IMG/VR virus record: IMGVR_UViG_3300049137_000252 | Location: 1 to 41,131 of that record | Source: a virus | Lineage: Duplodnaviria > Caudoviricetes | Direction: 5' to 3' (one strand) | Length of the DNA: 41,131 bases | The notes under the pieces: generated by a model | What the model saw: the letters and a program-made list of their open reading frames with translations, nothing else | Told to the model about the DNA's origin: nothing | The model's database searches: none | In this document: positions 11,890-41,131 of the stretch, one piece after another | How positions within the stretch are numbered: position 1 is the first letter of the stretch | How the letters are laid out: every line of letters begins with the position of its first letter | Position numbers and translations under genes: made by a program

Positions 11890-13518
11890 TTATGCAATCG
11901 GGTTGTCCACGTCGCCGCGCACAAGCACTTCGAATGAGTAGTCGTCGCCTGCTTCTGCGCCGGGGGTGATAGTCTGAGCGAGCCAGAAAGTGGGCAACGC
12001 GCCGACGGTGTTGATACGCACCACGTTGCCGACGGACCAGCCGCCGCCCCAGCCCGCGACTGCGATGCGAAAGTACGGCGCACCAGCGTTGTTGTTGAGC
12101 GGCGCAGTCTCGGTGTTGATGCTGCCCTCGCCGATCACGCCCAGGTGCTCGCCGATGATGTCGAATGTCAGCGTCGTCTTGAACAACAGCGCCCAGCGCT
12201 CCGTGACGGCGCCGGCATTGGTGACTTCGACCGGATAGTCGATGTCGTTGTAGGTCGCGGTCGACGCGTCGCCCACCAGCGAATCGGTGAAGGTCCGAGG
12301 GTTCCAGGTGGCTTGATCGAACAGCAGCGGCACGCGCGCGGCGAGGTCGCCCGCGATGAGCGCGCTGGAGATGTAGGAGCCGACCGGATAGGCGTGCGTC
12401 AACGGGCGCATCCCCGTCAATTGCCCGTTGATCTGCGCATCGCGGGTCTGCGTCATGTCCTCGACGCGATGTTCCACGCGCATCGGCTGCACGAAGCCCG
12501 TCACATCGGTCCACGTGACCACGCCCGCCTCAAGATCGACCGTATAGCCCGTATGCTGCGTGGCGCCGTCGTTGCCGATCACGCGCACGCGGGACAACCG
12601 CGTCCGACCGCAATTCAGGGTACCGCCAACGATCGCCGTTGCGGGCGTGGTGGTGTCCTTGTGGCCGATGACGTGCGCACCGCCTGGCCGGAAGATCGGC
12701 ACGCGGCCATCGGTCGGCAGGCGCACAGGATCGATACCCAACAGGGCCGCGTCCAGCGGCAGGTACGTGAACGCCACGGCGTTGAGGCGAACAGTCTCCT
12801 GGCGGACCAAGTCGACGTAGGCGTTGGTGACACCCGGCACGCCGAGGAATGAAAGATCGGCTTTCGTCTGCCCGCCCGCGGCCGTGGGCGTGACGCCGAC
12901 GATGATCACGACGCCCGTCGTGTAGTTGACCTTGCCCTTGATGCGCGTCGCGTTGATGTAGCCGTCGCTGTCGGCCGTGACGTTGAAGGTCGTACCGTCC
13001 TGCATGGTCCCGAGAATCGACACGCTGCCGGTGCGAAGCGGCGCGGTCGGAACGCGGAACGTGATCGCGTAGGTGCTGAAGGGCGTGTCGGGGCCATTGA
13101 CGGGCGCGCCGGCCACCCCCCGCCAGTTGCTGACGGCAGGCGAGCCACCGGCCGTCCACGAGTCGAGCAGCACCTCGCCCTGGGCGGGCGTCATGGTGCC
13201 GACCGTGGTGCCGTTGCCGGTCACGGGCGAGGGATTTACCTGAACCGCGCCGCTGGCCTTGACGACGTAGTCCTGCCCGGCGCGACTGAACCGCACGCCA
13301 GACAGCGAGAACGCGTTGGCGACGTTGGTCTTCAGGTGCAGCTGGTCCATGTCGCCGGTCAGCACCTCGGAGCCCGCAGCGCCCGACGAGAACGTCGCAG
13401 CCGCGCTGGCGACGCCCGAAAGGTTCATCGACACGATCGTGTTGAGCGCGACTGAAGCGAAGGGGGCTCGCTTGAGTGCAGCGCCGGTATCGAGGGGGTT
13501 GAGAGTGACATCGGTCAT
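11890..13518 (-). CDS. Tail structural protein
   Basis: LGIDPVRLPTDGRVPIFRPG and GWGGGWSVGNVVRINT motifs; operon position. Confidence 0.8.
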   Translation of the reverse strand: MTDVTLNPLDTGAALKRAPFASVALNTIVSMNLSGVASAAATFSSGAAGSEVLTGDMDQLHLKTNVANAFSLSGVRFSRAGQDYVVKASGAVQVNPSPVTGNGTTVGTMTPAQGEVLLDSWTAGGSPAVSNWRGVAGAPVNGPDTPFSTYAITFRVPTAPLRTGSVSILGTMQDGTTFNVTADSDGYINATRIKGKVNYTTGVVIIVGVTPTAAGGQTKADLSFLGVPGVTNAYVDLVRQETVRLNAVAFTYLPLDAALLGIDPVRLPTDGRVPIFRPGGAHVIGHKDTTTPATAIVGGTLNCGRTRLSRVRVIGNDGATQHTGYTVDLEAGVVTWTDVTGFVQPMRVEHRVEDMTQTRDAQINGQLTGMRPLTHAYPVGSYISSALIAGDLAARVPLLFDQATWNPRTFTDSLVGDASTATYNDIDYPVEVTNAGAVTERWALLFKTTLTFDIIGEHLGVIGEGSINTETAPLNNNAGAPYFRIAVAGWGGGWSVGNVVRINTVGALPTFWLAQTITPGAEAGDDYSFEVLVRGDVDNPIA

Positions 13519-13526
13519 GTTGTGCC

Positions 13527-15569
13527 TCAGGCAACCACGATGTCCCCGATGAAGTCACCGGGTTGTCGCAGGAAGACGTTGTCCCAAGCGGTCACAAGCA
13601 ATGCGACCGGCGTGGGGATGACGGTGTTGGCGGTCAGCGAAAACGTGCCGGCGGCGTAGTTCATGCTCCCCACCACCAGGCGCGCATCTCCGAGCAGCAG
13701 CACGAGGGCGCCAGCGGCGTCATCGACGATGCGGTATGTCGTCGCAGCCCCCCAGTTCACGACCGGGTTGTCCTGGTAGATGGCCTTGATCTGCCCCGTC
13801 ACGTCGAGAGAAACGGACCCCGGAGTGATACCGGTCACGCCGAGAGAGCCCGACCCGCCAACGATGGAGACGGTGGCTGCGGCCTTCGCGCCGGTGGCCA
13901 GGTTTACGGTGACGGGCGTGCCAGGTGCGGGGAGCAGGTTCGGGCTTAGCCGGAAGGTGCCGCGCGCGTAGTTCACCGTGCCCGAGGCATCGCCGGTGAT
14001 GTTGCCCGCGCCGTCGTCCTGCGCCGACCGCGGAGTGCCATCGTCCCATGCGATCGAGAGCGCGCCCGGCTTGATCGCCTTGGCGCCGGCCTCGAGGCTC
14101 GAAACGCCCGAGGTGTTGAAGGGCCAGTAGAAGCGCCCGTTGTTGTCGAGCGTGAGCACCTCGCTCGACCGCGCAGCGTCAGGCTCCACCCACTGGTAGA
14201 TGACGAAGCTGCCCACGTCCGGCAGCGCCCCCAACGTCACAAGGACCGTGGCAGTGTCGAAGTTGAGGTTGCCGGCGCCGAAGCTAGTGTCGGGGCCACG
14301 GATCGCGCCGTCGCCCTGCTCGCGCAGCACGTACCAACGGCCCTGGCTCATGTAGCTGATCGACAGCGTGCCGCGCGCGGGAGCCGGCTCGATGGTGCGC
14401 ACGTAGCTCAGGGACCGCGTCTCGATCTTGACCTCGAAGCCCTGCGATTGGCTGACCGACTGCGGGACCGCGCCGGGCGCGTAAGTGACGGTGAAGGTAC
14501 GGCCACCCGTGCCGAACACGTTGGTCGTGAGTGCGGCGATACCGTTCTCGTAGTCGATGGTGCCGACCTCTGCGCCGCCGGAGAGCAAGCGCCCGCCGCT
14601 GTCCGCGACGGAGATTGCGTCAGCCACGATCGACAGCGTGCTCGGGGCAATGGCACCGCCCAAGGACAGGCTCTGCGTCGTCGAGAAGATCGCGTTCAGG
14701 CTTTGCACCACGGCGGCGCCCGAAGACACCACGGCCGCAGACAGCTGGTTCATGCGCGCGTCGGCGATCGGCGTGTCGATCTGCGCCGAGGGCACCAGCT
14801 GGCTGAACATGGATTCACCCTTGATCGTGAAGGCGCCGATGCTCGCGGGCTCTTCGAGGCGCGTCACGCCGTAGTAGCGCGCGGCGTTCGCGACAACCGT
14901 GTCGCTCAGCTTCGTGAGCTGGGCAATCTGCGCCTTCGTGTAGTCGAACCGCGACATGTCGAAGCCGGGAAAGTCCTGCGCGAGCGTGTTGCCCAGCCGC
15001 AGCTTGAGCACCCAGCGCTTGAACAGGCCGCGGTCATCTTCGAACTCCCGCTCTTCGGCGGTGGCCTCGATCACTCGCACGTACTGGCGGAACTCGTCGG
15101 GGAATCCCTCGCGCTTCGTCAGCACCATCGTGGCGCCGATCGGAGGGGTGTTGCTGGTCTTCTGGAAGATGAGCAGCGTGTCCTGATGCTGGATGTGGTT
15201 GCCGTAGAGGTAGGCCGGATACTGCGGCCCGATCGAAAGGTAGGCCTCGATCCGCGAGACGGCCTCGACACGCCGGTCGAACGTCTCGCCCGTGCTGAAG
15301 GCCGTCATCGAGATATTCGGGTCGTCGGGCGGCTCCGAAATGATGACGTTCGACCCTTGGTACACATCGACGTTGTCTGTGTCGACATGCACCGCCAGCT
15401 TGCGCAGCTTCACGCGGCCGAGCGCGCGGTCCAGTTCGGACACGTCGGGGAAGATGGCATTGCTGGTGCCGTCAGGTACGACGACGCCGGTGGGCGCGCC
15501 GCCGCCCTCAGGCACGTCGGCCATCACCTGTGTTTTGACGAGCTTGAGGTCGCCGCTGAAAATTGCCAT
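13527..15569 (-). CDS. Large tail structural protein (tail tip complex)
   Basis: N-terminal GGG...DG.SN.IFPDVSELDR..GRV.LRK motif; follows the distal tail gene. Confidence 0.82.
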   Translation of the reverse strand: MAIFSGDLKLVKTQVMADVPEGGGAPTGVVVPDGTSNAIFPDVSELDRALGRVKLRKLAVHVDTDNVDVYQGSNVIISEPPDDPNISMTAFSTGETFDRRVEAVSRIEAYLSIGPQYPAYLYGNHIQHQDTLLIFQKTSNTPPIGATMVLTKREGFPDEFRQYVRVIEATAEEREFEDDRGLFKRWVLKLRLGNTLAQDFPGFDMSRFDYTKAQIAQLTKLSDTVVANAARYYGVTRLEEPASIGAFTIKGESMFSQLVPSAQIDTPIADARMNQLSAAVVSSGAAVVQSLNAIFSTTQSLSLGGAIAPSTLSIVADAISVADSGGRLLSGGAEVGTIDYENGIAALTTNVFGTGGRTFTVTYAPGAVPQSVSQSQGFEVKIETRSLSYVRTIEPAPARGTLSISYMSQGRWYVLREQGDGAIRGPDTSFGAGNLNFDTATVLVTLGALPDVGSFVIYQWVEPDAARSSEVLTLDNNGRFYWPFNTSGVSSLEAGAKAIKPGALSIAWDDGTPRSAQDDGAGNITGDASGTVNYARGTFRLSPNLLPAPGTPVTVNLATGAKAAATVSIVGGSGSLGVTGITPGSVSLDVTGQIKAIYQDNPVVNWGAATTYRIVDDAAGALVLLLGDARLVVGSMNYAAGTFSLTANTVIPTPVALLVTAWDNVFLRQPGDFIGDIVVA

Positions 15570-22832: not shown

Positions 22833-22876
22833 AATGTGCCAAGGCCGCTGTCTCAAATTAAGGCAAAAAGTGAGAC
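22833..22876 (-). promoter_or_regulatory. Late promoter with GTCTCA-N15-TGAGAC activator site (capsid gene)
   Basis: Near-identical copy at 24696-24722; weak -10 (CACATT) at the same offset. Confidence 0.7.
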
Positions 22877-22881
22877 GATTT

Positions 22882-24429
22882 TCAGGTGGCAGCCTTCGCC
22901 GCTTTCTTCTCGCGAGCGGACTTGTCCGAGGGCGCTTCTTCCGGCGGAGGCGCCGCAACGGAAGGTGCCACTGCGCGCCATCCGCCCAGGACATCGAGCA
23001 CGCCGAGGTCGCGCAGCTTCTCGATGTCGCTGGCGAGTTCCTTGTACACGTCGTCGGGGTTGTAGCCACGCTGGCGAAGCTTCTCGCTGATGCTCGAAAG
23101 CCCGCCGGAGATCTCGGCCAGGTCGGCGTTCACATCCTTCGAGGGATCGACATACGACCACTTCGGTGTGGAGTGGTAGAAAAGATATGACGCCCGCGGC
23201 ACGATGTCCGCCAGCGTCGCCGCATCCTCGAAGGCGCGGCACACGCGATCGCACAGGTTCGGAGCCAGCAGGCTCCACTGCTCGACTTCGGCTTCGCGGC
23301 GGAAGTCCAGCATCCGCACGCGCGCGCTGCTGAAGTTCACCTCGGACACGTCGCCGGTCATCATTTCGTAGGTCACGCCAAAGCCTGCGGCGATGAGATG
23401 CAGCTGGTGCTTGACGTACTCGACGTAGCCCGGCATTGCCTGCGGCTGCACCACCGTGAAGTTGGTGCCGATGGGCATGTTCATGATGCCGCCGCTGCCG
23501 AGCGCGCCGAGGGTCTCACCTGTGCGCGGCAGCGCGCCCTGCGCGCCCTGCACGCTGCCAGGCAGTGTCATTTCGCCCTGGGCGGCCAGCAGTTCGATGC
23601 TCCCGGAGCCGAGCACACTGATGCGCGCTTCGAGATTCTTTCGGTTGAGCTCGGCGTCTTCGTAGAGCTGCAGGTCGCGCACTCGGGCGATGACCGGCGC
23701 GATGCGCGGGAAGCCGCGGCCCTGCCCCGCCCTGTCCGGCGTGAACAGGTGGATGATGTACTGCGCATCGATGCGGCGGCTGATGTAGCCGGCGCGCGCG
23801 AGGCGCACCACGTCGCCGGGATGCTGGTCGAACAGCCAGTACGCTGCGACCCGGCCGAGCGGGTCATATTCGATGCCGTTCACGATGCGGCCCCCGGTCG
23901 GCAGTTCGGTGCATTTGTCCGAATCCAGGAAGTCGATCTCCAGCAGCTGCAACTGCAGCGGCACGGTCAAGCCATCGCTCTTGAGCCGCGGGCGCAGCCG
24001 CACGATGACTTCGCCGTCCTGTTGCATGGCCCGGTATGCCGCGGCCTGCATGCCGTAGTAGTTCGTGCGGCCGTCGGCGTCGCATTCCTTCACCCACTTG
24101 GCCCAGGCCGAATTCAGCTTGTCGGCTGTGCGAGCGTCTGCCCACGTCGGCGTGATGCCGACGCCCACGACGTTGGCGACCAGCGAGCGGAGACCCTGGG
24201 CGATGTAGGGCACGTTCTGAACCAATGCTCGCGAGCGGATTCGAAGCTCGCGGCCGTCGCGCGCATGGTCGGCGTTCGCCGATGCGCCCGCCCGCTGGGG
24301 GACCCAGCCGTCGGCACGGCTCGCGCCTTCGTAGGCACGCGTCAGCATCTGCCGCTGGACCTGCCGGCGAAGGCCATTGCCTGGACTGAAGTAGCCCACG
24401 ATGCGATCAATGATGTTGCGGCGTGCCAC
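22882..24429 (-). CDS. Portal protein, lambda family
   Basis: RAYEGA, LQLQLLEIDFLD, NGIEYD..GR..AYW, GQGRGFP, TGDVSEVNFSSAR; GTG start inferred. Confidence 0.93.
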   Translation of the reverse strand: MARRNIIDRIVGYFSPGNGLRRQVQRQMLTRAYEGASRADGWVPQRAGASANADHARDGRELRIRSRALVQNVPYIAQGLRSLVANVVGVGITPTWADARTADKLNSAWAKWVKECDADGRTNYYGMQAAAYRAMQQDGEVIVRLRPRLKSDGLTVPLQLQLLEIDFLDSDKCTELPTGGRIVNGIEYDPLGRVAAYWLFDQHPGDVVRLARAGYISRRIDAQYIIHLFTPDRAGQGRGFPRIAPVIARVRDLQLYEDAELNRKNLEARISVLGSGSIELLAAQGEMTLPGSVQGAQGALPRTGETLGALGSGGIMNMPIGTNFTVVQPQAMPGYVEYVKHQLHLIAAGFGVTYEMMTGDVSEVNFSSARVRMLDFRREAEVEQWSLLAPNLCDRVCRAFEDAATLADIVPRASYLFYHSTPKWSYVDPSKDVNADLAEISGGLSSISEKLRQRGYNPDDVYKELASDIEKLRDLGVLDVLGGWRAVAPSVAAPPPEEAPSDKSAREKKAAKAAT

Positions 24430-24678: not shown

Positions 24679-24722
24679 ACGCTACCGGCGCGACTGTCTC
24701 AAGTTAAGGCAAAAGATGAGAC
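24679..24722 (-). promoter_or_regulatory. Late promoter with GTCTCA-N15-TGAGAC activator site (gpW/portal)
   Basis: CTGTCTCAAGTTAAGGCAAAAGATGAGACG repeats the 22848 motif; -10 TAGCGT. Confidence 0.7.
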
Positions 24723-24726
24723 GGTT

Positions 24727-25143
24727 TCACGTGGAGCCGTCACGCCGCGGCGCCTGCTTCAGCAGTCGGTAGACCGTGGCTCGGCTGATGTTCAGGCTGC
24801 GGGCGACCTCTGACGCGTTGCGGCCATTGAAAAGCGACAGCACCTGGTGCGCGAGCGCCCCGCTTGCGCGGCGGGAGATGTACACGCGATCGCCGCCCAG
24901 GTGTTCGCGCACCGCGCGCTTCGCCTTCGCGAACTGCGGCCCTGCCAAGTGCGGAAACTCGCGCAGCAGGTAGGTGAAGACGTGGTCGACGAAGTCCACC
25001 TCGGCGAGTGGGGAGCCGGCGGGGGCTGGGGAGGACTCGGCGGCCGGGGCGCCGGCTGCGCCCTCACCAACGCCGGCCGAGCCCAAGGGGAGCAGGTCGG
25101 GCTGCGATGCGGCCTCGTTCGGCTGTGACGGGTTGAGGTTCAT
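24727..25143 (-). CDS. Mor/C-like transcription activator with C-terminal HTH
   Basis: HLGGDRVYI...FNGRNASEVARSLNISRATVYRLLK. Confidence 0.82.
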   Translation of the reverse strand: MNLNPSQPNEAASQPDLLPLGSAGVGEGAAGAPAAESSPAPAGSPLAEVDFVDHVFTYLLREFPHLAGPQFAKAKRAVREHLGGDRVYISRRASGALAHQVLSLFNGRNASEVARSLNISRATVYRLLKQAPRRDGST

Positions 25144-28658: not shown

Positions 28659-28907
28659 TGTGAGGCATGTGAGGGGTGGTGTGGGGCATGGGTGCGGACG
28701 TAAGTGCCTGTCGGCATTGGCGTGTGGGGTATGTGAGGTATGTGAGGCATGCAGGCGGGTGCACATGCATGCGGGTGTGCGCACGCACCCATGCATGCGC
28801 ACACATGGGCGGGTAAGGCCCGGATGCCTCACATACCTCACAGGCGTTGATTTCATTGGGTTTTCTTGCCTCACACCATGGCTCACAGATGGCTCACATG
28901 CCTCACC
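28659..28907. repeat. Putative replication origin: oppositely oriented TGTGAGG/CCTCACA iterons
   Basis: About 6 TGTG(A/G)GG on the left and about 6 (C/G)CTCAC(A) on the right; perfect 19-bp inverted repeat at 28732-28750 and 28824-28842; directly downstream of the primase-helicase. Confidence 0.7.
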
Positions 28908-31535: not shown

Positions 31536-32069
31536 TCACCTGTCCGCTCCCGGGTCACGCATGCGTGCGCGCAGCATGGCGAGCGTGTGGCCAGTGAGGG
31601 CGAGCAGCTCCTGCCCCATGTGGTCGGCCCTGCGCATCTGATTGCGAGACACCTCGCCGTCGCCGAGTAGCAGCGCATCGGCCACCGAGCGGCAGAAGTC
31701 AGCATGCGCCACCTGCAGGCGCGTGAAGGTATCGACCGGATCACCTCCCGCCTGGTCAGGCGTGGCGCGTGTGCACGTATGGCCCAGCGCCTCGGCCATC
31801 GCGTGCAACACCGAGTAGTTGCCGCTGAACACCTGCATGTCGATCAGCTCGCGGGGGTTGGGCTGATGCGTGTTGGTGTTCGGGTTGGCCTTGTGGGTGA
31901 GCGTGTTTGGGCTCATGCCCATGCGCGCAGCCAGCGCGGTCACGCCGCCAGGGTAGCCGTGCACCGTGTTGTAGACGGCGTCGAGGATGTCCTGCCCGAC
32001 CACGCTGGAGGGAAAGGGCTCATCAGCGCCGTGGGCAAGGTGCGGAGGAACTGAGACAGTTGCTTTCAT
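31536..32069 (-). CDS. Phage regulatory CII-family protein
   Basis: HGYPGGVTALAARMGMSPNTLTHKANP...H signature; downstream of cro; GAGG RBS. Confidence 0.85.
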   Translation of the reverse strand: MKATVSVPPHLAHGADEPFPSSVVGQDILDAVYNTVHGYPGGVTALAARMGMSPNTLTHKANPNTNTHQPNPRELIDMQVFSGNYSVLHAMAEALGHTCTRATPDQAGGDPVDTFTRLQVAHADFCRSVADALLLGDGEVSRNQMRRADHMGQELLALTGHTLAMLRARMRDPGADR

Positions 32070-32101: not shown

Positions 32102-32359
32102 ATGGACGCAACGCAACCCACCACGCACGAACGAATCGATGCGATCGAACAATTCCTGCAGCAGCTCGTGCTGCTGCTCGAAGTGGAGCCCGAGCTTTCA
32201 CGCGACAGCATTGGGGCGTGGTTCGCTGTGTGCCAAGCCAGCTCGCGGGCCAGCGGCGTCGGATCGGCGCGCAGCGAGCAGGCGCTGGCGCAGCTGTGCG
32301 GCCGCGTGCTCGAGTCGCCGGTCGACGTGCTGCGACCGTCGGGCACATGGCCGTCGTGA
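32102..32359 (+). CDS. Orphan protein A, counter-oriented within the early lytic operon
   Basis: 85-aa helical ORF (ERIDAIEQFLQQLVLLLEVEP), purine-rich upstream sequence. Confidence 0.65.
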   Translation: MDATQPTTHERIDAIEQFLQQLVLLLEVEPELSRDSIGAWFAVCQASSRASGVGSARSEQALAQLCGRVLESPVDVLRPSGTWPS

Positions 32360-32434
32360 ACAAAGGGCGGGCGCCCGCCACCGTTGGACAATGCGGTCAC
32401 CACAACACCATTGCCAACGGAAGGGACGCCCGAA

Positions 32435-32827
32435 ATGAAAACGTACAAGCGCATGCTCATGGTCCGAAACGAGGCCAGCACGGATTCCGTACAGCTCGTG
32501 ATCGAGACGGACGATGGCGACGTCCAGTTGCGCATACCTGCGGATCTGCTCAACAGTGCGATCACGGGGCTTTTCGCCGCCGCGCACCAGTTGTCACCGC
32601 ACAGGCCACCAGTGCCGCTGCAGCCCAACCAAGCCACCATCGCGGCGCCCTTCTTTGCGCAGTCTGCGGGCACGCATGCGGAAGGTCCGGAGGAATCCGT
32701 GCTGACCGTCCAATGTGGCCCTGCGACGCTGGCGATTCACATGAGGCCGGCAGCACTGCGAGAGGCGGCTGCCACGATGGAACAAGCCGCTCAAACACTT
32801 CGCTCGCAGACTCCCCGGGCACACTGA
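32435..32827 (+). CDS. Orphan protein B, counter-oriented within the early lytic operon
   Basis: 130-aa ORF, GGAAGGGA RBS, beta-beta-alpha pattern apparently repeated twice. Confidence 0.7.
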   Translation: MKTYKRMLMVRNEASTDSVQLVIETDDGDVQLRIPADLLNSAITGLFAAAHQLSPHRPPVPLQPNQATIAAPFFAQSAGTHAEGPEESVLTVQCGPATLAIHMRPAALREAAATMEQAAQTLRSQTPRAH

Positions 32828-32915
32828 CCGGCGAAGCCAGCTTGCGTAGGCAAACGCGACCGCACGCGCGATCGCACTCGGAAATGTCGGGGAAGATGCG
32901 GTCGCTCTCAGACAT
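32562..32915 (-). CDS. cro-coupled ORF whose N-terminus mimics tail protein residues 39-59
   Basis: ATG overlaps the cro 3' end, GGGGAGGG RBS; IFPDISECDRACGRVCLRKLA versus tail IFPDVSELDRALGRVKLRKLA. The remainder overlaps orphan B antisense and may be non-functional. Confidence 0.6.
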   Translation of the reverse strand: MSESDRIFPDISECDRACGRVCLRKLASPVSVPGESASEVFERLVPSWQPPLAVLPASCESPASQGHIGRSARIPPDLPHACPQTAQRRAPRWWLGWAAAALVACAVTTGARRRKAP

Positions 32916-33168
32916 TGGCGCCCTCCCCCTTGGCCAACTGCTGCGTCGCCTCCGTGAGTTCGGGCCAGATGGCCTGCCAGTCGGTGGGGAACAGGACCTT
33001 GCGCGACACGATTCCGCGAGCCTCAGCGATCGGTGCGAGCCGAATCAACTTGTCGTCGGGGATGCGGCCGGACTTCCGCCATTCGGACACCGAGGGCTGT
33101 TTGATGCCGAAAAGCTCGGCAACGGCAGCCGTGCCGCCCAGCGCGTCGAGAAGGGTATTTGCATCCAT
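32908..33168 (-). CDS. cro: Cro-like repressor
   Basis: LGGTAAVAELFGIKQPSVSEW...IP HTH; divergent from cI. Confidence 0.88.
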   Translation of the reverse strand: MDANTLLDALGGTAAVAELFGIKQPSVSEWRKSGRIPDDKLIRLAPIAEARGIVSRKVLFPTDWQAIWPELTEATQQLAKGEGANV

Positions 33169-33174
33169 GCGCGA

Positions 33175-33239
33175 ATGTTAGGCATGCCTTATATGCAAGT
33201 CAATAGGGATGCCTTATTTTTCATGCGTAGGCTTGCCTA
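33175..33239. promoter_or_regulatory. OR-type control region: three operators and divergent PR/PRM-like promoters
   Basis: TAGGCATGCCTT 33179, TAGGGATGCCTT 33204, TAGGCTTGCCTA 33228; minus-strand TTGACT-N17-TAACAT. Confidence 0.85.
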
Positions 33240-33241
33240 AT

Positions 33242-33907
33242 ATGAAGACCACACTCGCGGAACGCATGCGCCTGGCGCTGGCTGGCCCGCCTAAAAAGAC
33301 CCAGACGGCTCTTGCTGCTGCGTGCGGCGTGAAACCGCCATCGGTCAACGGCTGGGTTTCTGGGGAATCGAAGACTATCGAGGGAGCGAACCTGTTGAAG
33401 GCTGCCGCCTTCCTCGGCGTGTCGGCCAAGTGGCTCGCCGAAGGCGTGGGCCCTATGCGTGGAGATGACGCGCCACCGCCGGATAGCGAGTTCGTCGAAG
33501 TGCATCGAGCTGACGTGAAGTTCTCAAATGGCACCGGCCAGATCGTCTACCACGTCGAGGACATGCCTCCCTTGTCATTCCGGGCCGACTTCCTGCGAAA
33601 GATGGGCATTCCTGCAGGAAAGGCTGTGGTTGTTGATGCCGTCGGCAACAGCAACGAGGGCAAGATTCAGGACGGATCGGTCGTGTTGGTCAACACGGCA
33701 GACAAGGCCAACTTGAACGGAGATTTTTTCGCGTTTCGCGTTGATGGTGAGCTGCTCATCAAGCGCCTGAACCGAGTGCCCGGCGTAGGCGTTGTTGCGA
33801 CCGCAGAGAACCCCAACTTCTCCCCAAAGGTGAAGGTGTACCCTGAAACATCAGAGATCGATTTCGAGGTCCTAGGGCGCGCGCTTTGGACCGGATCGAT
33901 GCTTTAG
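33242..33907 (+). CDS. cI: CI-like repressor (XRE HTH plus S24 peptidase)
   Basis: TQTALAAACGVKPPSVNGW HTH; GNS (catalytic Ser) and IKRL (catalytic Lys). Confidence 0.92.
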   Translation: MKTTLAERMRLALAGPPKKTQTALAAACGVKPPSVNGWVSGESKTIEGANLLKAAAFLGVSAKWLAEGVGPMRGDDAPPPDSEFVEVHRADVKFSNGTGQIVYHVEDMPPLSFRADFLRKMGIPAGKAVVVDAVGNSNEGKIQDGSVVLVNTADKANLNGDFFAFRVDGELLIKRLNRVPGVGVVATAENPNFSPKVKVYPETSEIDFEVLGRALWTGSML

Positions 33908-33946: not shown

Positions 33947-33966
33947 CTTAGCTCGCCATAAATAAT

Positions 33967-34007
33967 TAGGCATGCCTATTGACAGGCATGTAAGGCATGC
34001 CTAATAT
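33967..34007 (+). promoter_or_regulatory. OL/PL-type promoter with two operators
   Basis: TTGACA(33979)-N17-TAATAT(34002); perfect palindrome TAGGCATGCCTA at 33967 and AAGGCATGCCTA at 33992. Confidence 0.88.
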
Positions 34008-34046
34008 TCATCTCACGTGCCGCATCCCGCGGCAGTTGGAGATGAG

Positions 34047-36316: not shown

Positions 36317-36786
36317 CCATGATGCCGTCCGTCCTCAACGATGAACTGGCGGCCGTGCTACGCACGGTTGCGCAGGCCGACCTCTGCGAGCCCTCGAACA
36401 TCGCCAAGACCCACGGCCGCGCAGTGGCCGAGCAGCTCGACCAACTGCACGCCGCCGGCCTGGTCATGCGCCAGGGCGCTCGGCGCCCGGATCGCACGCG
36501 CACCACGCTCTACAGCATCAGCGCGACCGGGCGCGAGCGGCTTCACGCCTTCGAGGCAGGGTTTCGGCTCCGCATCAAGGCCAGCAGCCGCGTGCCGGCC
36601 GTAGCGGCCCCACGCACCGCCCACCTGACGACGCGGGGTCTGTACACCGGCGCCGAACTGCGCCCCTACGACGGCCGCCCGGGAGCCATGGACGCCTTCG
36701 CGCTGCCCAGCCGCATGGGCAGCCGCCTGCACTACCGATCCGGCGAAGTCGTCGAGGCAAAAGCGCTGGGAGGCGCGACGCAATGA
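36313..36786 (+). CDS. Winged-helix-like hypothetical protein
   Basis: LDQLHAAGLV...LYSISATGR wing motif; ATGA overlap. Confidence 0.65.
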   Translation: MTMMPSVLNDELAAVLRTVAQADLCEPSNIAKTHGRAVAEQLDQLHAAGLVMRQGARRPDRTRTTLYSISATGRERLHAFEAGFRLRIKASSRVPAVAAPRTAHLTTRGLYTGAELRPYDGRPGAMDAFALPSRMGSRLHYRSGEVVEAKALGGATQ

Positions 36787-37529
36787 GATTCTTCACAGGC
36801 CTGCACCAGCCCAGCGACGCGCGCCACTTTGATGGCGCCTTCGTGAGCGTAAACCGGCTGCGCTCGCGCAAGGCGTCGATGAATGTAGGCGACTGGATCA
36901 TGGACAGCGGAGCCTTCACCGAGGTTTCGCGTCATGGCGGCTACCGGCAAGACGTCGCAAGTTATGCGGCTGAGATCCGGCGCTGGGCGACGAACGGCTC
37001 TGGTCGGCTGCTCGCTGCGGCCGCCCAGGACTTCATGTGCGAGCCGTTCATCATCAAGATCACCGGCCTGTCGGTCGAGGAGCATCAGCGACTAACCGTC
37101 GAGCGCTACGACGCGTTGCGCGCCGAAGACACGGCAGGCGTCTACATACTGCCGGTGGTGCAGGGGTTCGATCCGACCGACTACGTGCGCCACATCGCGA
37201 TGTATGGCGATCGGCTGCAGCACGGCGCATGGGTCGGCGTCGGCTCGGTCTGCAAGCGCAACGGCTCGCCGGATCAGGTCGCGGCAGTGCTGATGGCGGT
37301 CAAGCAAGCGCGTCCCGACCTGCTGCTGCACGGCTTCGGCCTCAAGACCACGGCGCTGGCGCACCCATTCGTGCGCTCGATGTTGCATTCCGCCGACTCG
37401 ATGGCCTGGAGCTTTGCAGCTCGCAAACAGGGCCGCAACGCGAACGACTGGCGCGAGGCCGCCCGCTGGACCGCCGCGATCGAGAGCCGCCCCGTGCAGC
37501 ACATGCTCGCGCTGGAGGCCACGGCATGA
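36783..37529 (+). CDS. TGT/DpdA-like base transglycosylase (queuine tRNA-ribosyltransferase fold)
   Basis: IMDSGAF, QDFMCEP, PVVQG, GVGSVC, LHGFG, SADSMAW motifs. Confidence 0.8.
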   Translation: MRFFTGLHQPSDARHFDGAFVSVNRLRSRKASMNVGDWIMDSGAFTEVSRHGGYRQDVASYAAEIRRWATNGSGRLLAAAAQDFMCEPFIIKITGLSVEEHQRLTVERYDALRAEDTAGVYILPVVQGFDPTDYVRHIAMYGDRLQHGAWVGVGSVCKRNGSPDQVAAVLMAVKQARPDLLLHGFGLKTTALAHPFVRSMLHSADSMAWSFAARKQGRNANDWREAARWTAAIESRPVQHMLALEATA

Positions 37530-38053
37530 CGGTCGCCATCCTCTTCGCCCGCCAGGACAGCATCTACAAGACGCTGCCCGACTGCGACGTGTGGGACATC
37601 GATCGCGACGCCCGGCGGTGGCCCGGCGGTGGCCCGGCGGTGGCGCATCCGCCGTGCCGCGCCTGGGGCCGCTACGCGCACGTCGCGAAGCCGCGGCCTG
37701 ACGAGAAGGCGCTCGCCCCTTGGGCCATGGAGCAGGTCCGCAAGCATGGCGGCGTGCTCGAGCATCCGATCACGTCGCGCCTGTGGGCGCACTGCGGCTG
37801 CCTGGGCTACGGCGTGCGCGACCAGTGGGGCGGTGTGCTGCTGCCTGTGCATCAGTCGTGGTGGGGCCATCGGGCTCCGAAGCCGACCGGCATCTACATC
37901 GCGGGCCCCGCCCCCGACCTCCCATTCGATCCCGTCCTCGCCGCGGGGCGCATCGAGAACATGTGCCACGCCGAACGCGAGAAGACGCCAGAGCCGTTCG
38001 CTCGCTGGCTCGTTGACCTTGCACGCCGGTGCGAAAGGACGGTGACGGCATGA
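37526..38053 (+). CDS. C5-cytosine methyltransferase-like protein (atypical, short)
   Basis: AHPPC (motif IV), VLEHP (VI), QSWWGH...KPT (VIII); no FxGxG motif I visible. Confidence 0.65.
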   Translation: MTVAILFARQDSIYKTLPDCDVWDIDRDARRWPGGGPAVAHPPCRAWGRYAHVAKPRPDEKALAPWAMEQVRKHGGVLEHPITSRLWAHCGCLGYGVRDQWGGVLLPVHQSWWGHRAPKPTGIYIAGPAPDLPFDPVLAAGRIENMCHAEREKTPEPFARWLVDLARRCERTVTA

Positions 38054-38379
38054 AGCTCTACATCGCAGGCCCCATGACCGGGCTGCCCGACCTCAACTTT
38101 CCGGTGTTCCATCGGGCGGCGGCACTTCTGCGCGCCGCCGGCCATACGGTGGCCAACCCGGCCGAGATCAACCCCGACCCCGGCGCGCAGTGGCAGGCGT
38201 GCATGTTCCGCGACCTCGAAGAACTCGACACGTGCGACGGTATCTTGATGCTGCCGGGCTGGGAGAACTCGCCGGGCGCTCAGATCGAGCGGCTGTGGGC
38301 GAAGCGCACCGGCAAGACCATCCTCAATGCTTCGATGCTGAATTGCATCGAGGTGCAGCTGAACGAGGCATCCGCGTGA
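38050..38379 (+). CDS. DUF4406 / NDT-fold protein
   Basis: LYIAGPMTG..DLNFP.F, NPAE, CDGILMLPGWENSPGA.IE. Confidence 0.85.
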   Translation: MKLYIAGPMTGLPDLNFPVFHRAAALLRAAGHTVANPAEINPDPGAQWQACMFRDLEELDTCDGILMLPGWENSPGAQIERLWAKRTGKTILNASMLNCIEVQLNEASA

Positions 38380-39362
38380 GCACGAAGCACGTTGTTTCCG
38401 TCTCTGGCGGCAAGGACAGCCTGGCCACACTGCTGATCGCCATTGCGCGTTGCGGCATCGAGAACGTCATCGCGATCTTTTGCGACACCGGCAACGAGCA
38501 CGACGACACCTACGCCTACCTCGACTACCTTGAGGCACGGCTGGGCATCAAGATCGTGCGGCTCAAGGCAGACTTCACGCCCCAGCTGGCGGCCAAGCGC
38601 ATGTTCATCGCGCGCGACGTGCGCACGGGCCGCGACAAGCACGGCCGGCGCCTGCGCTGGTCGAATAAGGCCAAACGCCGCGCGCTGGCCGTGATGTACC
38701 CGAGCGGCAATCCCTTCCTGGACCTGTGCATGTGGAAGGGTCGCTTTCCCTCGCGCAAGGCGCAGTTCTGCACCGAAGAGCTGAAGCGCAACATGGCGGT
38801 GGGCTTCCAGCTCGACCTGATGGAGGCCGGCCACAACGTCATCTCGTGGCAAGGCATCCGGCGCGACGAGTCACAGAACCGGGCCAACGCGAAGAAGTGG
38901 GAGCGCGTCGGCCGCGGGCTGTGGATCGCTCGTCCGATCGTCGATAACACCGCAGAGGAAGTCTTCGCCTTCTCCGCATCGCACGGAGTCAAGCCCAACC
39001 CGCTGTACCTGCAGGACATGAACCGCGTCGGCTGCATGCCGTGCATCAACTGCAGCAAGGGCGAACTGCGCGCCATTGCCGCGCGCTTTCCTGAGCACCC
39101 CGCACGAATCGCCGAGTGGGAGCTGATCGTCAGCGCGTGCAGCAAACGCGGCTTCTCGACGTTCATGGCAGACGCGCACCAGGCCAAGGACCGCCGCGTG
39201 ATCTTCGCCGATCTCAACATCTGGGCGCGCATCGAATGGTCGAAGACCAGCCGCGGTGGCAAGCAGTTCAACCTGCTAGATGAGCAGGAAAACGAGGGCG
39301 GGGGCTGCAGCTCCAGCTATGGCCTGTGCGACCAAGGTGCCCCCATTCTGGAGACCGCATGA
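38376..39362 (+). CDS. PAPS reductase-family (PP-loop) protein
   Basis: SVSGGKDS, DTGNE, CTEELK, GIRRDES, RVGCMPC, C-terminal CSSSYGLC. Confidence 0.9.
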   Translation: MSTKHVVSVSGGKDSLATLLIAIARCGIENVIAIFCDTGNEHDDTYAYLDYLEARLGIKIVRLKADFTPQLAAKRMFIARDVRTGRDKHGRRLRWSNKAKRRALAVMYPSGNPFLDLCMWKGRFPSRKAQFCTEELKRNMAVGFQLDLMEAGHNVISWQGIRRDESQNRANAKKWERVGRGLWIARPIVDNTAEEVFAFSASHGVKPNPLYLQDMNRVGCMPCINCSKGELRAIAARFPEHPARIAEWELIVSACSKRGFSTFMADAHQAKDRRVIFADLNIWARIEWSKTSRGGKQFNLLDEQENEGGGCSSSYGLCDQGAPILETA

Positions 39363-39802
39363 AGCGCCGAGTGAAGAACCTCACCAGCTGGGCCGAGATG
39401 ATCGCCGCGCGCCAGCCCATGGCGCGGTCCGTTGCCGACGACGTCATGGCGAAGCTCTACAGCGCCTTCGGCGACCTGAAGGCCGGCAGCACCGACGACG
39501 AGTTGTTCGACCGCATGGCAGCCGCCATCAACGTAGGCATCGTGCGCGCTGAGCAGATCGCGCCGGCGTGCGTCTCGCCGATGCTGGCCGCGCGCGACGC
39601 GCTCATCCGATGCGATGACATTCGCGGCCGCCATGGCCGCTACGGCTTCGACGGCCCTGGACTGCTGGCGATGGCTGCAGGCCTCGAGGTCTACGAGGAA
39701 ATGGTGCGCAACAGCACCCCACAACAAATGCGCGAGGCCATGACGGCATCGATCGCGCGCATGCGCCGCCAAGCGGCGGCAGAACACCGGCTCCAATCAT
39801 GA
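39359..39802 (+). CDS. Hypothetical phage protein
   Basis: GGAG RBS, ATGA overlap. Confidence 0.7.
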   Translation: MKRRVKNLTSWAEMIAARQPMARSVADDVMAKLYSAFGDLKAGSTDDELFDRMAAAINVGIVRAEQIAPACVSPMLAARDALIRCDDIRGRHGRYGFDGPGLLAMAAGLEVYEEMVRNSTPQQMREAMTASIARMRRQAAAEHRLQS

Positions 39803-40065
39803 AGACGATCTTTCTGCTGATGGCGCAATACGACGCCCGCCCGGTCATTCCGCTGGAATGGGTGCAGCGCGACTTCTTCAGCCATCTCGAGGTGAAGAAG
39901 CTCGCGGCGAAGTGCACCACGGGGGAAATCAGGCTGCCCTTAGTGCGGACTGACCCCAGCAGCCAGAAGTCGCCGAAGGGGGTGGGCATCCAAGACCTCG
40001 CCCAGTACCTCGACGATCGACAACATGCGGCGCGAAAAGAGCTGGAACAGCTTCTCCCCAAGTGA
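39799..40065 (+). CDS. Pyocin activator PrtN-family protein (excisionase-like)
   Basis: MKTIFLLMAQY...IPL..V.RDFF...LP......SQKSPKGV...DLAQYLD. Confidence 0.88.
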   Translation: MKTIFLLMAQYDARPVIPLEWVQRDFFSHLEVKKLAAKCTTGEIRLPLVRTDPSSQKSPKGVGIQDLAQYLDDRQHAARKELEQLLPK

Positions 40066-40180
40066 ATCTGCCCGTGCCGCTGCTAGTAAACTTCGATCGC
40101 TCGTCGACGTCTTGACACGCGAGTTCAGACCCTCGAACGCCCGAGCAACTTGAAGCCAAATCCAAAGAAAATATTGACCC

Positions 40181-41131
40181 ATGAGCGCAGAACCAAGACC
40201 TAGGGAATCTGTCGGGGGCCAGTTCACCACACCTCTTCGATATCCCGGCGGCAAGGGGCGTCTGGGTCCCTGGATTGCGGAAATCATGCGTCACAACCGA
40301 ATCTCCGGGGGCTGGTACGTCGAACCGTACGCCGGCGGCGCCGGGGCGGCGCTCTTCTTGCTGACGCAGGGCTACGTCGACCACATCGTCATCAACGATG
40401 CCGACCCGATCGTTCATGCCTTCTGGAAGGCTGCTACCGACTACAACTCCGAACTACTGGCCACAGTCCAGAGAACGCCGGTGACAATGGACACGTGGCA
40501 TCGCCAGCGCGAGATCATCGCTGCGCCTGGAAAATACAACTTGGTCGAGGTCGCCTTCGCCACTTTTTTCCTCAATCGCACCAATCGCTCGGGCATCCTT
40601 TCCGCAGGAGTCATCGGCGGCAAGGCTCAGAGCGGCAACTACAAGCTGGATGCGCGCTACAACGTCGCGGAACTGATGAATCGCATCAAGACGATCGGTG
40701 CATATCGAAGTCGCATGACCGTGCTCGGCATTGACGCCCTTGATCTCTTAACTGATGTGGCGCCTGGCTTCCCCAGGGAGTGCTTGGTCTACCTGGACCC
40801 GCCGTACTACGTCAAAGGCAGCCTGCTGTATCGGAACCACTACCTCCATGACGACCACGCGGCGATTGCGGAGCGAGTCGAGGATGCGACCTATCCCTTG
40901 ATCGTCACCTACGATGATTGCTCCGAAATCCGCCAGCTGTACCGGTCGTTCGAATCCACGAACTTTGAACTGCACTACTCGACGCATTTGGCGCGCCCAC
41001 TCACCAGCGAGGTCTTGTTCTACAAAAACCTAGAACTGCCGTCCGCGCCGGCAATGACTCGCGCGACTCACTTGGCCCAGCAAGCACGCACGAATGGCGC
41101 GATGGCGTCCCAGAAGATGTTGAGCGCCTGA
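40181..41131 (+). CDS. DNA adenine methyltransferase (Dam/D12-like)
   Basis: TPLRYPGGKG, YVEPYAGGAG, IND, FFLNRTNRSG, YLDPPYY. Confidence 0.92.
   Translation: MSAEPRPRESVGGQFTTPLRYPGGKGRLGPWIAEIMRHNRISGGWYVEPYAGGAGAALFLLTQGYVDHIVINDADPIVHAFWKAATDYNSELLATVQRTPVTMDTWHRQREIIAAPGKYNLVEVAFATFFLNRTNRSGILSAGVIGGKAQSGNYKLDARYNVAELMNRIKTIGAYRSRMTVLGIDALDLLTDVAPGFPRECLVYLDPPYYVKGSLLYRNHYLHDDHAAIAERVEDATYPLIVTYDDCSEIRQLYRSFESTNFELHYSTHLARPLTSEVLFYKNLELPSAPAMTRATHLAQQARTNGAMASQKMLSA

Follow-up and report, generated by a model that had tools for sequence, protein, structure and literature searches.

What is a short stretch of tail protein doing behind the cro gene of a temperate phage? The window analysed here, a whole virus record of 41 kb (41,131 nt), has a gene content that reads as that of a temperate tailed phage, with recognisable cI, cro, cII-like, primase, terminase, portal, head and tail genes. 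Relevant to what follows are the cI repressor (33242..33907, plus strand; phrog_4), cro (32908..33168, minus strand; phrog_35, with a Pfam P22_Cro match below cut-off) and a cII-like activator (31536..32069, minus strand; phrog_101, PF06892). Inverted 53-nt operator/promoter blocks (33173–33225 and 33957–34009; 85% alike) flank cI in a lambda-like oR/oL layout. The protein family of the motif ORF discussed below has a Variovorax member, which suggests that the host of this phage may be beta-proteobacterial.

A fragment of the tail protein behind cro

The ORF that raises the question spans 32562..32915 on the minus strand (117 aa). Its ATG at 32915 overlaps the end of cro by 8 nt and lies 6 nt downstream of a GGAGG ribosome-binding site embedded in the 3′ end of cro (32922..32926, minus strand), a site that in relatives is part of the junction common to many unrelated post-cro cassettes. 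Codons 1–27 (32835..32915, minus strand) constitute the tail-motif module, of which codons 7–27 (32835–32897) copy residues 39–59 of the tail protein (15393..15455, minus strand). Compared codon by codon, the two stretches share 17 of 21 residues and 47 of 63 bases, with a different synonymous codon at 6 of the 17 shared residues, exactly as a preliminary description of the locus had counted. That description was also right about the start at 32915 and its own ribosome-binding site; the product it envisaged, a peptide of 21–27 aa, was not borne out, however, because the frame remains open to 32562. From about codon 30 to codon 117 the ORF runs antisense to a plus-strand gene termed orphan A. 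This portion is not common to the related metagenome loci L149 and L150 or the related proteins P0004–P0006, and is likely a passenger, left in the window after the orphan A cassette displaced the downstream DNA.

How specific is the resemblance? When the window was searched with the 680-aa tail protein by tblastn, the motif copy scored 43.1 bits (E 8e-7) and the next non-self match 23.9 bits, with best matches of 20.8–30.4 bits in 30 triplet-shuffled windows; the copy is the sole such self-match among the long ORFs of the window. The phrog_6128 profile, to which the tail protein belongs, matches the ORF at positions 36–59 only (E 2e-4), and the ORF reads as a fragment copy, not as a member of this family, whose full-length proteins measure ~1200 aa. 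Three cysteines in the copy had raised the idea of a metal-binding C-x3-C-x3-C role, which is ruled out: the middle Cys alone is kept in all six close copies. Nor was a conserved RNA fold seen, three different folds being predicted in an analysis that had no shuffle control.

A predicted pR-like promoter (33175..33203, minus strand; 9/12 consensus match) ends 6 nt 5′ of cro, and a predicted intrinsic terminator stem (32366..32382, minus strand) would end the cro and ORF transcript; the terminator is a weak prediction, since one such stem was found against 1.3 expected by chance. Together, these elements would place cro and the ORF on one immediate-early transcript, in agreement with the earlier proposal of early production from the lytic promoter. 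A single RNA-library contig spans 32470–32634, outside the motif, and such contigs carry neither strand nor level.

An accessory module with a selected reading frame

The preliminary description had proposed to look in relatives for a homologous motif downstream of cro, and there it is found. At L149 and L150, the same ORF N-terminus stands immediately 3′ of cro with the same overlap; the cro/cI pairs of the two loci differ from that of the window and from each other, as do the downstream genes. Among Logan contigs, taken from 8 of 24 listed runs, the whole module adjoins different cro ends in three runs: X3, where orphan A accompanies it in another cro/cII context, and X5 and X8, where other downstream DNA follows. 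Contigs of X2 and X9 diverge after roughly the first 16 codons, and those of X2 and X4 retain the window's cro but codons 1–10 only.

Protein searches returned a family of 13, in which relatives of 73–148 aa carry the motif at the N-terminus; a Pro-rich linker and then a basic, aromatic C-terminal segment often come after it. The motif is intact in P0004–P0006; P0012, P0014 and P0016 show changes in its second half, and in P0015 and P0021 it is eroded. Five of the 13 have the C-terminal module alone and no motif, which makes the motif an N-terminal unit separable from the rest.

Is it the peptide that has been kept? For codons 2–27, sense-frame pN/pS was 0.12 between the window and L149 (p = 0.006), 0.24 between the window and L150 (p = 0.056) and 0.48 between L149 and L150 (p = 0.19); changes are thus mostly synonymous overall, with two of the three pairwise tests on the motif codons non-significant. 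Codons 28–41 of L149 and L150, which still resemble the tail, gave 0.10 (p = 0.018), and the shifted sense frames gave values of about 1.2 to 2 or contained no synonymous change. The sense-frame values support the earlier argument for selection on the peptide rather than a recent DNA duplication or an antisense RNA.

The module is rarely present. No copy was found at any of 27 cro-relative loci or at any of 16 cII-relative loci, and the post-cro slot holds many unrelated cassettes joined at one shared junction, so that the motif element is accessory. From comparative sequence data, we take the cro-coupled motif ORF to be a real, selected, accessory module in which the tail motif of this phage is copied. 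It is rare and labile, and its loss or erosion in relatives fits both fluctuating defence pressure and decay.

The tail protein and the fit of the copies

The copied stretch belongs to a tail protein (13527..15569, minus strand; 680 aa) that corresponds to the N-terminal half of phrog_6128 and is preceded by the tape measure and a 132-aa gene. The remaining half (542 aa) is encoded by the next gene on this strand (11890–13518). The split (13518–13527) looks natural, because the phages G007 and G020 have similar first halves of ~680 aa. In GenBank phages, this family is likewise found behind the tape measure and a ~132-aa gene, under the labels tail fibre, putative tail protein or hypothetical. 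A broad motif scan, covering 29 of 64 parts, placed all 119 of the 119 viral matches listed in tail genes or tail fragments. One provirus carries two long tail-type frames with equal motif scores (G028:C1:25331 and 38272).

Compared over 23 residues with the tail of the same phage, the window copy reaches a score of 78, which none of 101 other tail variants attains. For the copies found in three other phages (see below), the variants scoring at or above the own tail, self included, numbered 1 of 101 (G074), 3 of 101 (G368) and 13 of 101 (G050). At all four positions where the window copy departs from its own tail, a set of 55 tail variants varies as well; these tails were gathered by a motif pattern, and the invariance of the remaining columns is therefore partly built in, which makes the comparison to that extent circular. 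For P0014 and P0016, the slightly better fit is to a second tail subtype (best score 60 versus 57, mean 52 versus 41–42), only a hint that copies track their own tail. Among nine cII-related records in which the tail start could be read, eight have the second subtype and one a near-canonical motif, and none has a copy.

Little can be borrowed from known structures. The tail N-terminus has no PDB sequence match and no VIA match, and residues 1–116 gave no Foldseek PDB match at E ≤ 0.001. The predicted N-terminal domain matches five unnamed viral models of 60–331 aa at E ≤ 0.03, and a 280-residue tail model gave weak tailspike matches. As a side observation, the BFVD entries A0A1J0MDA6, A0A6H0X7K0 and Q6PU85, small viral proteins of 60, 80 and 150 aa, match the predicted domain and, as far as models can suggest, are possible stand-alone copies of it.

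Second copies in unrelated phages

Whole-record searches covered 199 distinct virus records, mostly fragments, of which 170 have the tail motif; the search models included the known copies. At E ≤ 2.2e-4, three of the 170, from unrelated phages, contain a second copy in a small ORF, as do none of five GenBank phages. In G050, the copy sits in a 171-aa ORF that is coupled to a different cro, 5′ of a cII-like gene, and has no match in GenBank phages. G074 carries a 64-aa ORF that overlaps both terL and the preceding gene (phrog_756), by position presumably the small terminase. In G368, an 89-aa ORF starting 452 nt 5′ of the tail gene joins the tail's first codons (27 of 39 bases) to the motif (48 of 63 bases), a visible partial duplication; it has no clear ribosome-binding site.

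With a profile built from tails only, the window copy scored 43.9 bits, G050 21.3 and G074 16.6, against a maximum of 10.7 in 15 shuffles of 0.54 Mb; the G368 case rests on the nucleotide match and lies outside this scoring. All three ORFs stand where production would precede or accompany that of tails. Together with the window, this would make four origins, apparently separate, each of which drew on the same ~20 residues out of a total of ~1200.

Several further candidates were rejected. Weak second matches in G027, G014 and G026 were discarded, as none starts a coupled ORF, and those in G372 and G373 are located inside long frames. L120, L148 (a tail gene) and L332, which came from Cys-specific scans, are not copies, and a further Cys-specific scan yielded zero matches. 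A class-wide genome search gave a match in 12 of 250.

A candidate decoy for tail-sensing defence

What could favour this particular stretch? With the same ~20 residues taken in four origins and placed for production before or with tails, the simplest driver would be a protein that recognises the stretch and harms the phage. This is why we prefer to read the cro-coupled ORF as a candidate early-made competitive decoy for tail-sensing defence, a reading that we put at a probability of about 0.45. Translation of the ORF would be coupled to that of cro, on a transcript started at pR upon infection or induction. Its motif copy would bind a sensor encoded by the host or by another prophage without activating it, perhaps owing to substitutions at the three positions that are Cys in the window copy, and would so occupy the tail-sensing defence protein ahead of real tail production.

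In favour of the decoy stand the copy itself, its conservation behind different cro genes, the selection on its reading frame, its fit to the phage's own tail and the recurrence in three unrelated phages. There are also points against it. A peptide that reproduces the trigger exactly could activate the sensor instead of blocking it. The motif is rare and labile (0/27 cro-relative and 0/16 cII-relative loci, 3/170 records, 0/5 GenBank phages); G007 has a near-canonical tail motif yet no copy, and the G368 ORF lacks a clear ribosome-binding site. Finally, two of the three pairwise tests on codons 1–27 are non-significant (p = 0.056 and p = 0.19).

Could the copy act on tails themselves? The motif might be a contact surface of the tail tip, in which case a free copy would bind tail partners and either poison the assembly of competitors or delay or chaperone that of its own phage. 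Compatible with such a role, the motif region is modelled at low confidence in the monomer (pLDDT 44–52 for residues 31–60 in one model, 65–68 in another), as is seen for segments ordered by a partner, the copies of G368 and G074 lie in late operons, and the Tab and Tai systems discussed below show that prophages do use a block of tail assembly as a strategy. Its timing would be wrong for use against rivals, however, as a gene driven by pR would be silent in the lysogen and active while the phage itself grows, and the copy matches its own tail best. The copy is also absent from most relatives and so is not a needed assembly factor. We consider an assembly modulator unlikely.

The orphan genes and the question of a cognate pair

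Orphan A (32435..32827, plus strand), an antisense cassette gene of 130 aa, has eight homologs at 26–96% identity and belongs to no Pfam, PHROG or PADLOC family. Its third-position GC of 0.72, compared with 0.58 for the ORF, marks it as the likely real gene of the overlap. By eye, it comprises two similar units, each of two short strands and a helix. A pattern scan found no viral locus for it, and Atlas matches appeared only at 0.86, to unnamed clusters; P0004 had no Atlas match. Orphan B (32102..32359, plus strand), likewise antisense and just upstream of cII, has no family match.

By analogy with Tha/Ith (PMC11087260), orphan A could be a tail-triggered defence gene expressed in the lysogen, with the overlapping antisense ORF as its inhibitor. 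The layout resembles that system, at least as far as the small overlapping antisense gene is described in the available text; motif and orphan A moved together into another cro/cII context in run X3, and the phage G001, which lacks a copy, combines orphan A with a variant tail motif that might evade it. The motif also occurs with other downstream DNA, however, in L149, X5 and X8, orphan A matches no defence family, and no such antisense partner was identified at G074 or G368. L149 has the motif without orphan A and L152 has orphan A without the motif, each being found without the other, and an obligate link with the orphans is therefore not supported. For orphan B, co-occurrence fails too: among L152–L166, it is kept in all 14 cII relatives that reach that far, and the motif is in none. 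A cognate pair thus appears improbable; orphan A may nevertheless be among several targets.

In L152–L166, the cro-cII interval is a cassette hotspot in its own right, where unrelated cro-coupled ORFs and antisense genes exchange at the shared ribosome-binding junction, which makes it a candidate source of defence/counter-defence pairs. The cro-coupled peptide of L152 was considered as a copy of another tail part and has no match to its tail.

A relic or a docking signal?

Might the motif be nothing but a piece of tail gene captured at the post-cro cassette junction, decaying and carried along without function as a recombination boundary? The many unrelated cassettes accepted behind cro at a shared junction, the eroded and half-deleted versions and the partial duplication that G368 resembles would all fit. 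This reading sits poorly with the synonymous excess in the sense frame, with changes relative to the own tail at four tail-variable positions (a partly circular point, the tails having been found by motif pattern), with the G050 copy, which shares 12 of 23 residues but only 33 of 63 bases with its tail, and with four origins having each picked the same ~20 residues out of ~1200. We regard a relic as improbable. Slightly less probable still is a last reading, in which a general host factor, be it a protease, a chaperone or a membrane factor, docks on the motif and would be titrated by the copy so as to protect the nascent tail protein. The motif is short, linear and N-terminal, often with the linker and basic, aromatic segment described above, but the hydrophobic-moment values lacked a control and a general need predicts a wider presence than is seen.

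Comparison with known tail-directed systems

How would a decoy compare with known counter-defences? One close parallel is Tha/Ith of Staphylococcus aureus prophages, a tail-triggered defence countered by a small early gene (PMC11087260). According to that report, Ith is small and early and overlaps an antisense gene near the immunity region, and one phage has Ith without Tha, as a pure evasion factor; the window ORF, under a predicted pR, overlaps orphan A. A HEPN domain characterises Tha; orphan A, by contrast, matches neither a Pfam family at cut-off nor anything in PADLOC, and whereas inhibitor and defence form a cognate pairing there, the antisense partner of the window ORF is not fixed (L149, L152). 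The word 'mimic' is absent from the main text of that report, and the available passages mention no likeness of Ith to tail proteins.

Mechanistically, DSAD1 offers an analogy: it competes with the tail tube protein for DSR2 (PMC11263360), and we propose that the window copy likewise vies with a tail protein for binding to an immune sensor. The available text mentions no sequence copy of the tail tube protein, however, and the tail protein concerned differs from that of the window. Tab/anti-Tab of Pseudomonas phage JBD26 has its counter-defence coupled to a lytic gene and adjoining an opposite-strand defence gene (PMC10884400). Going by the available text, the G074 copy occupies the same slot, just before terL. 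Tab, however, targets the tape measure protein and no motif copy is described there; the window element lies between cro and cII, and no opposite-strand gene stands between the G074 copy and terL.

Tai targets the central tail fibre, and its counterpart Ati is confined to the lytic cycle in a noncontiguous operon (PMC11364771). Tail-directed defence and lytic-cycle restriction of the counter-defence are shared with our proposal, but Tai/Ati are described as a fixed cognate pair, and mimicry is not mentioned in the available text. As regards peptide triggers, a ~30-residue peptide of the tail-tip protein J is reported to suffice for HepS, and a one-residue variant binds but is a poor activator (PMC13043305); in that account, Gifsy phages escape by altering the tail protein itself, with no separate copy. 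In their available portions, three further texts do not mention a sequence copy of a structural trigger: one surveys Avs sensors (10.64898/2026.01.04.697583), one presents an anti-defence database (10.1101/2025.06.06.658234) and one is a review from 2026 (PMC13728456). The earlier remark that no element of this kind had been described in a cro-cII interval agrees with our search, which found none in the main texts of a mostly non-subscription literature. As far as these texts go, phages are known to counter tail sensing with unrelated proteins or by altering the tail, and the window would present a copy of the trigger sequence itself.

If the decoy reading is true, phages would have a simple way to evolve immune evasion, namely to copy the trigger. 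More tentatively, it is possible that phages repeatedly duplicate immune-sensed tail epitopes into small early or late decoy genes, that such self-copies mark the patterns bacterial sensors read, and that the phrog_6128 motif is one of these, copied at least four times independently, with its peptide a ready sensor bait. Small self-copies of structural proteins in phage genomes would then point to sensed epitopes without bench screens, and the 27-residue module could be used as a direct bait for the sensor in beta-proteobacterial hosts. If the copy acts on assembly instead, the motif would pinpoint an interface in a widespread tail family for which no solved structure was found.

Other features of the window

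Elsewhere in the window, an imperfect 55-nt direct repeat (82%) flanks the portal region (22848–22902 and 24694–24748), each copy lying just 5′ of a late gene. A long imperfect palindrome at 28732–28842, in the interval between primase and late genes, is a possible origin or packaging signal. Positions 36783–41131 contain matches to queuine tRNA-ribosyltransferase-like and PAPS reductase-like proteins, a nucleoside deoxyribosyltransferase and a DNA methyltransferase, and possibly form a DNA-modification cluster.
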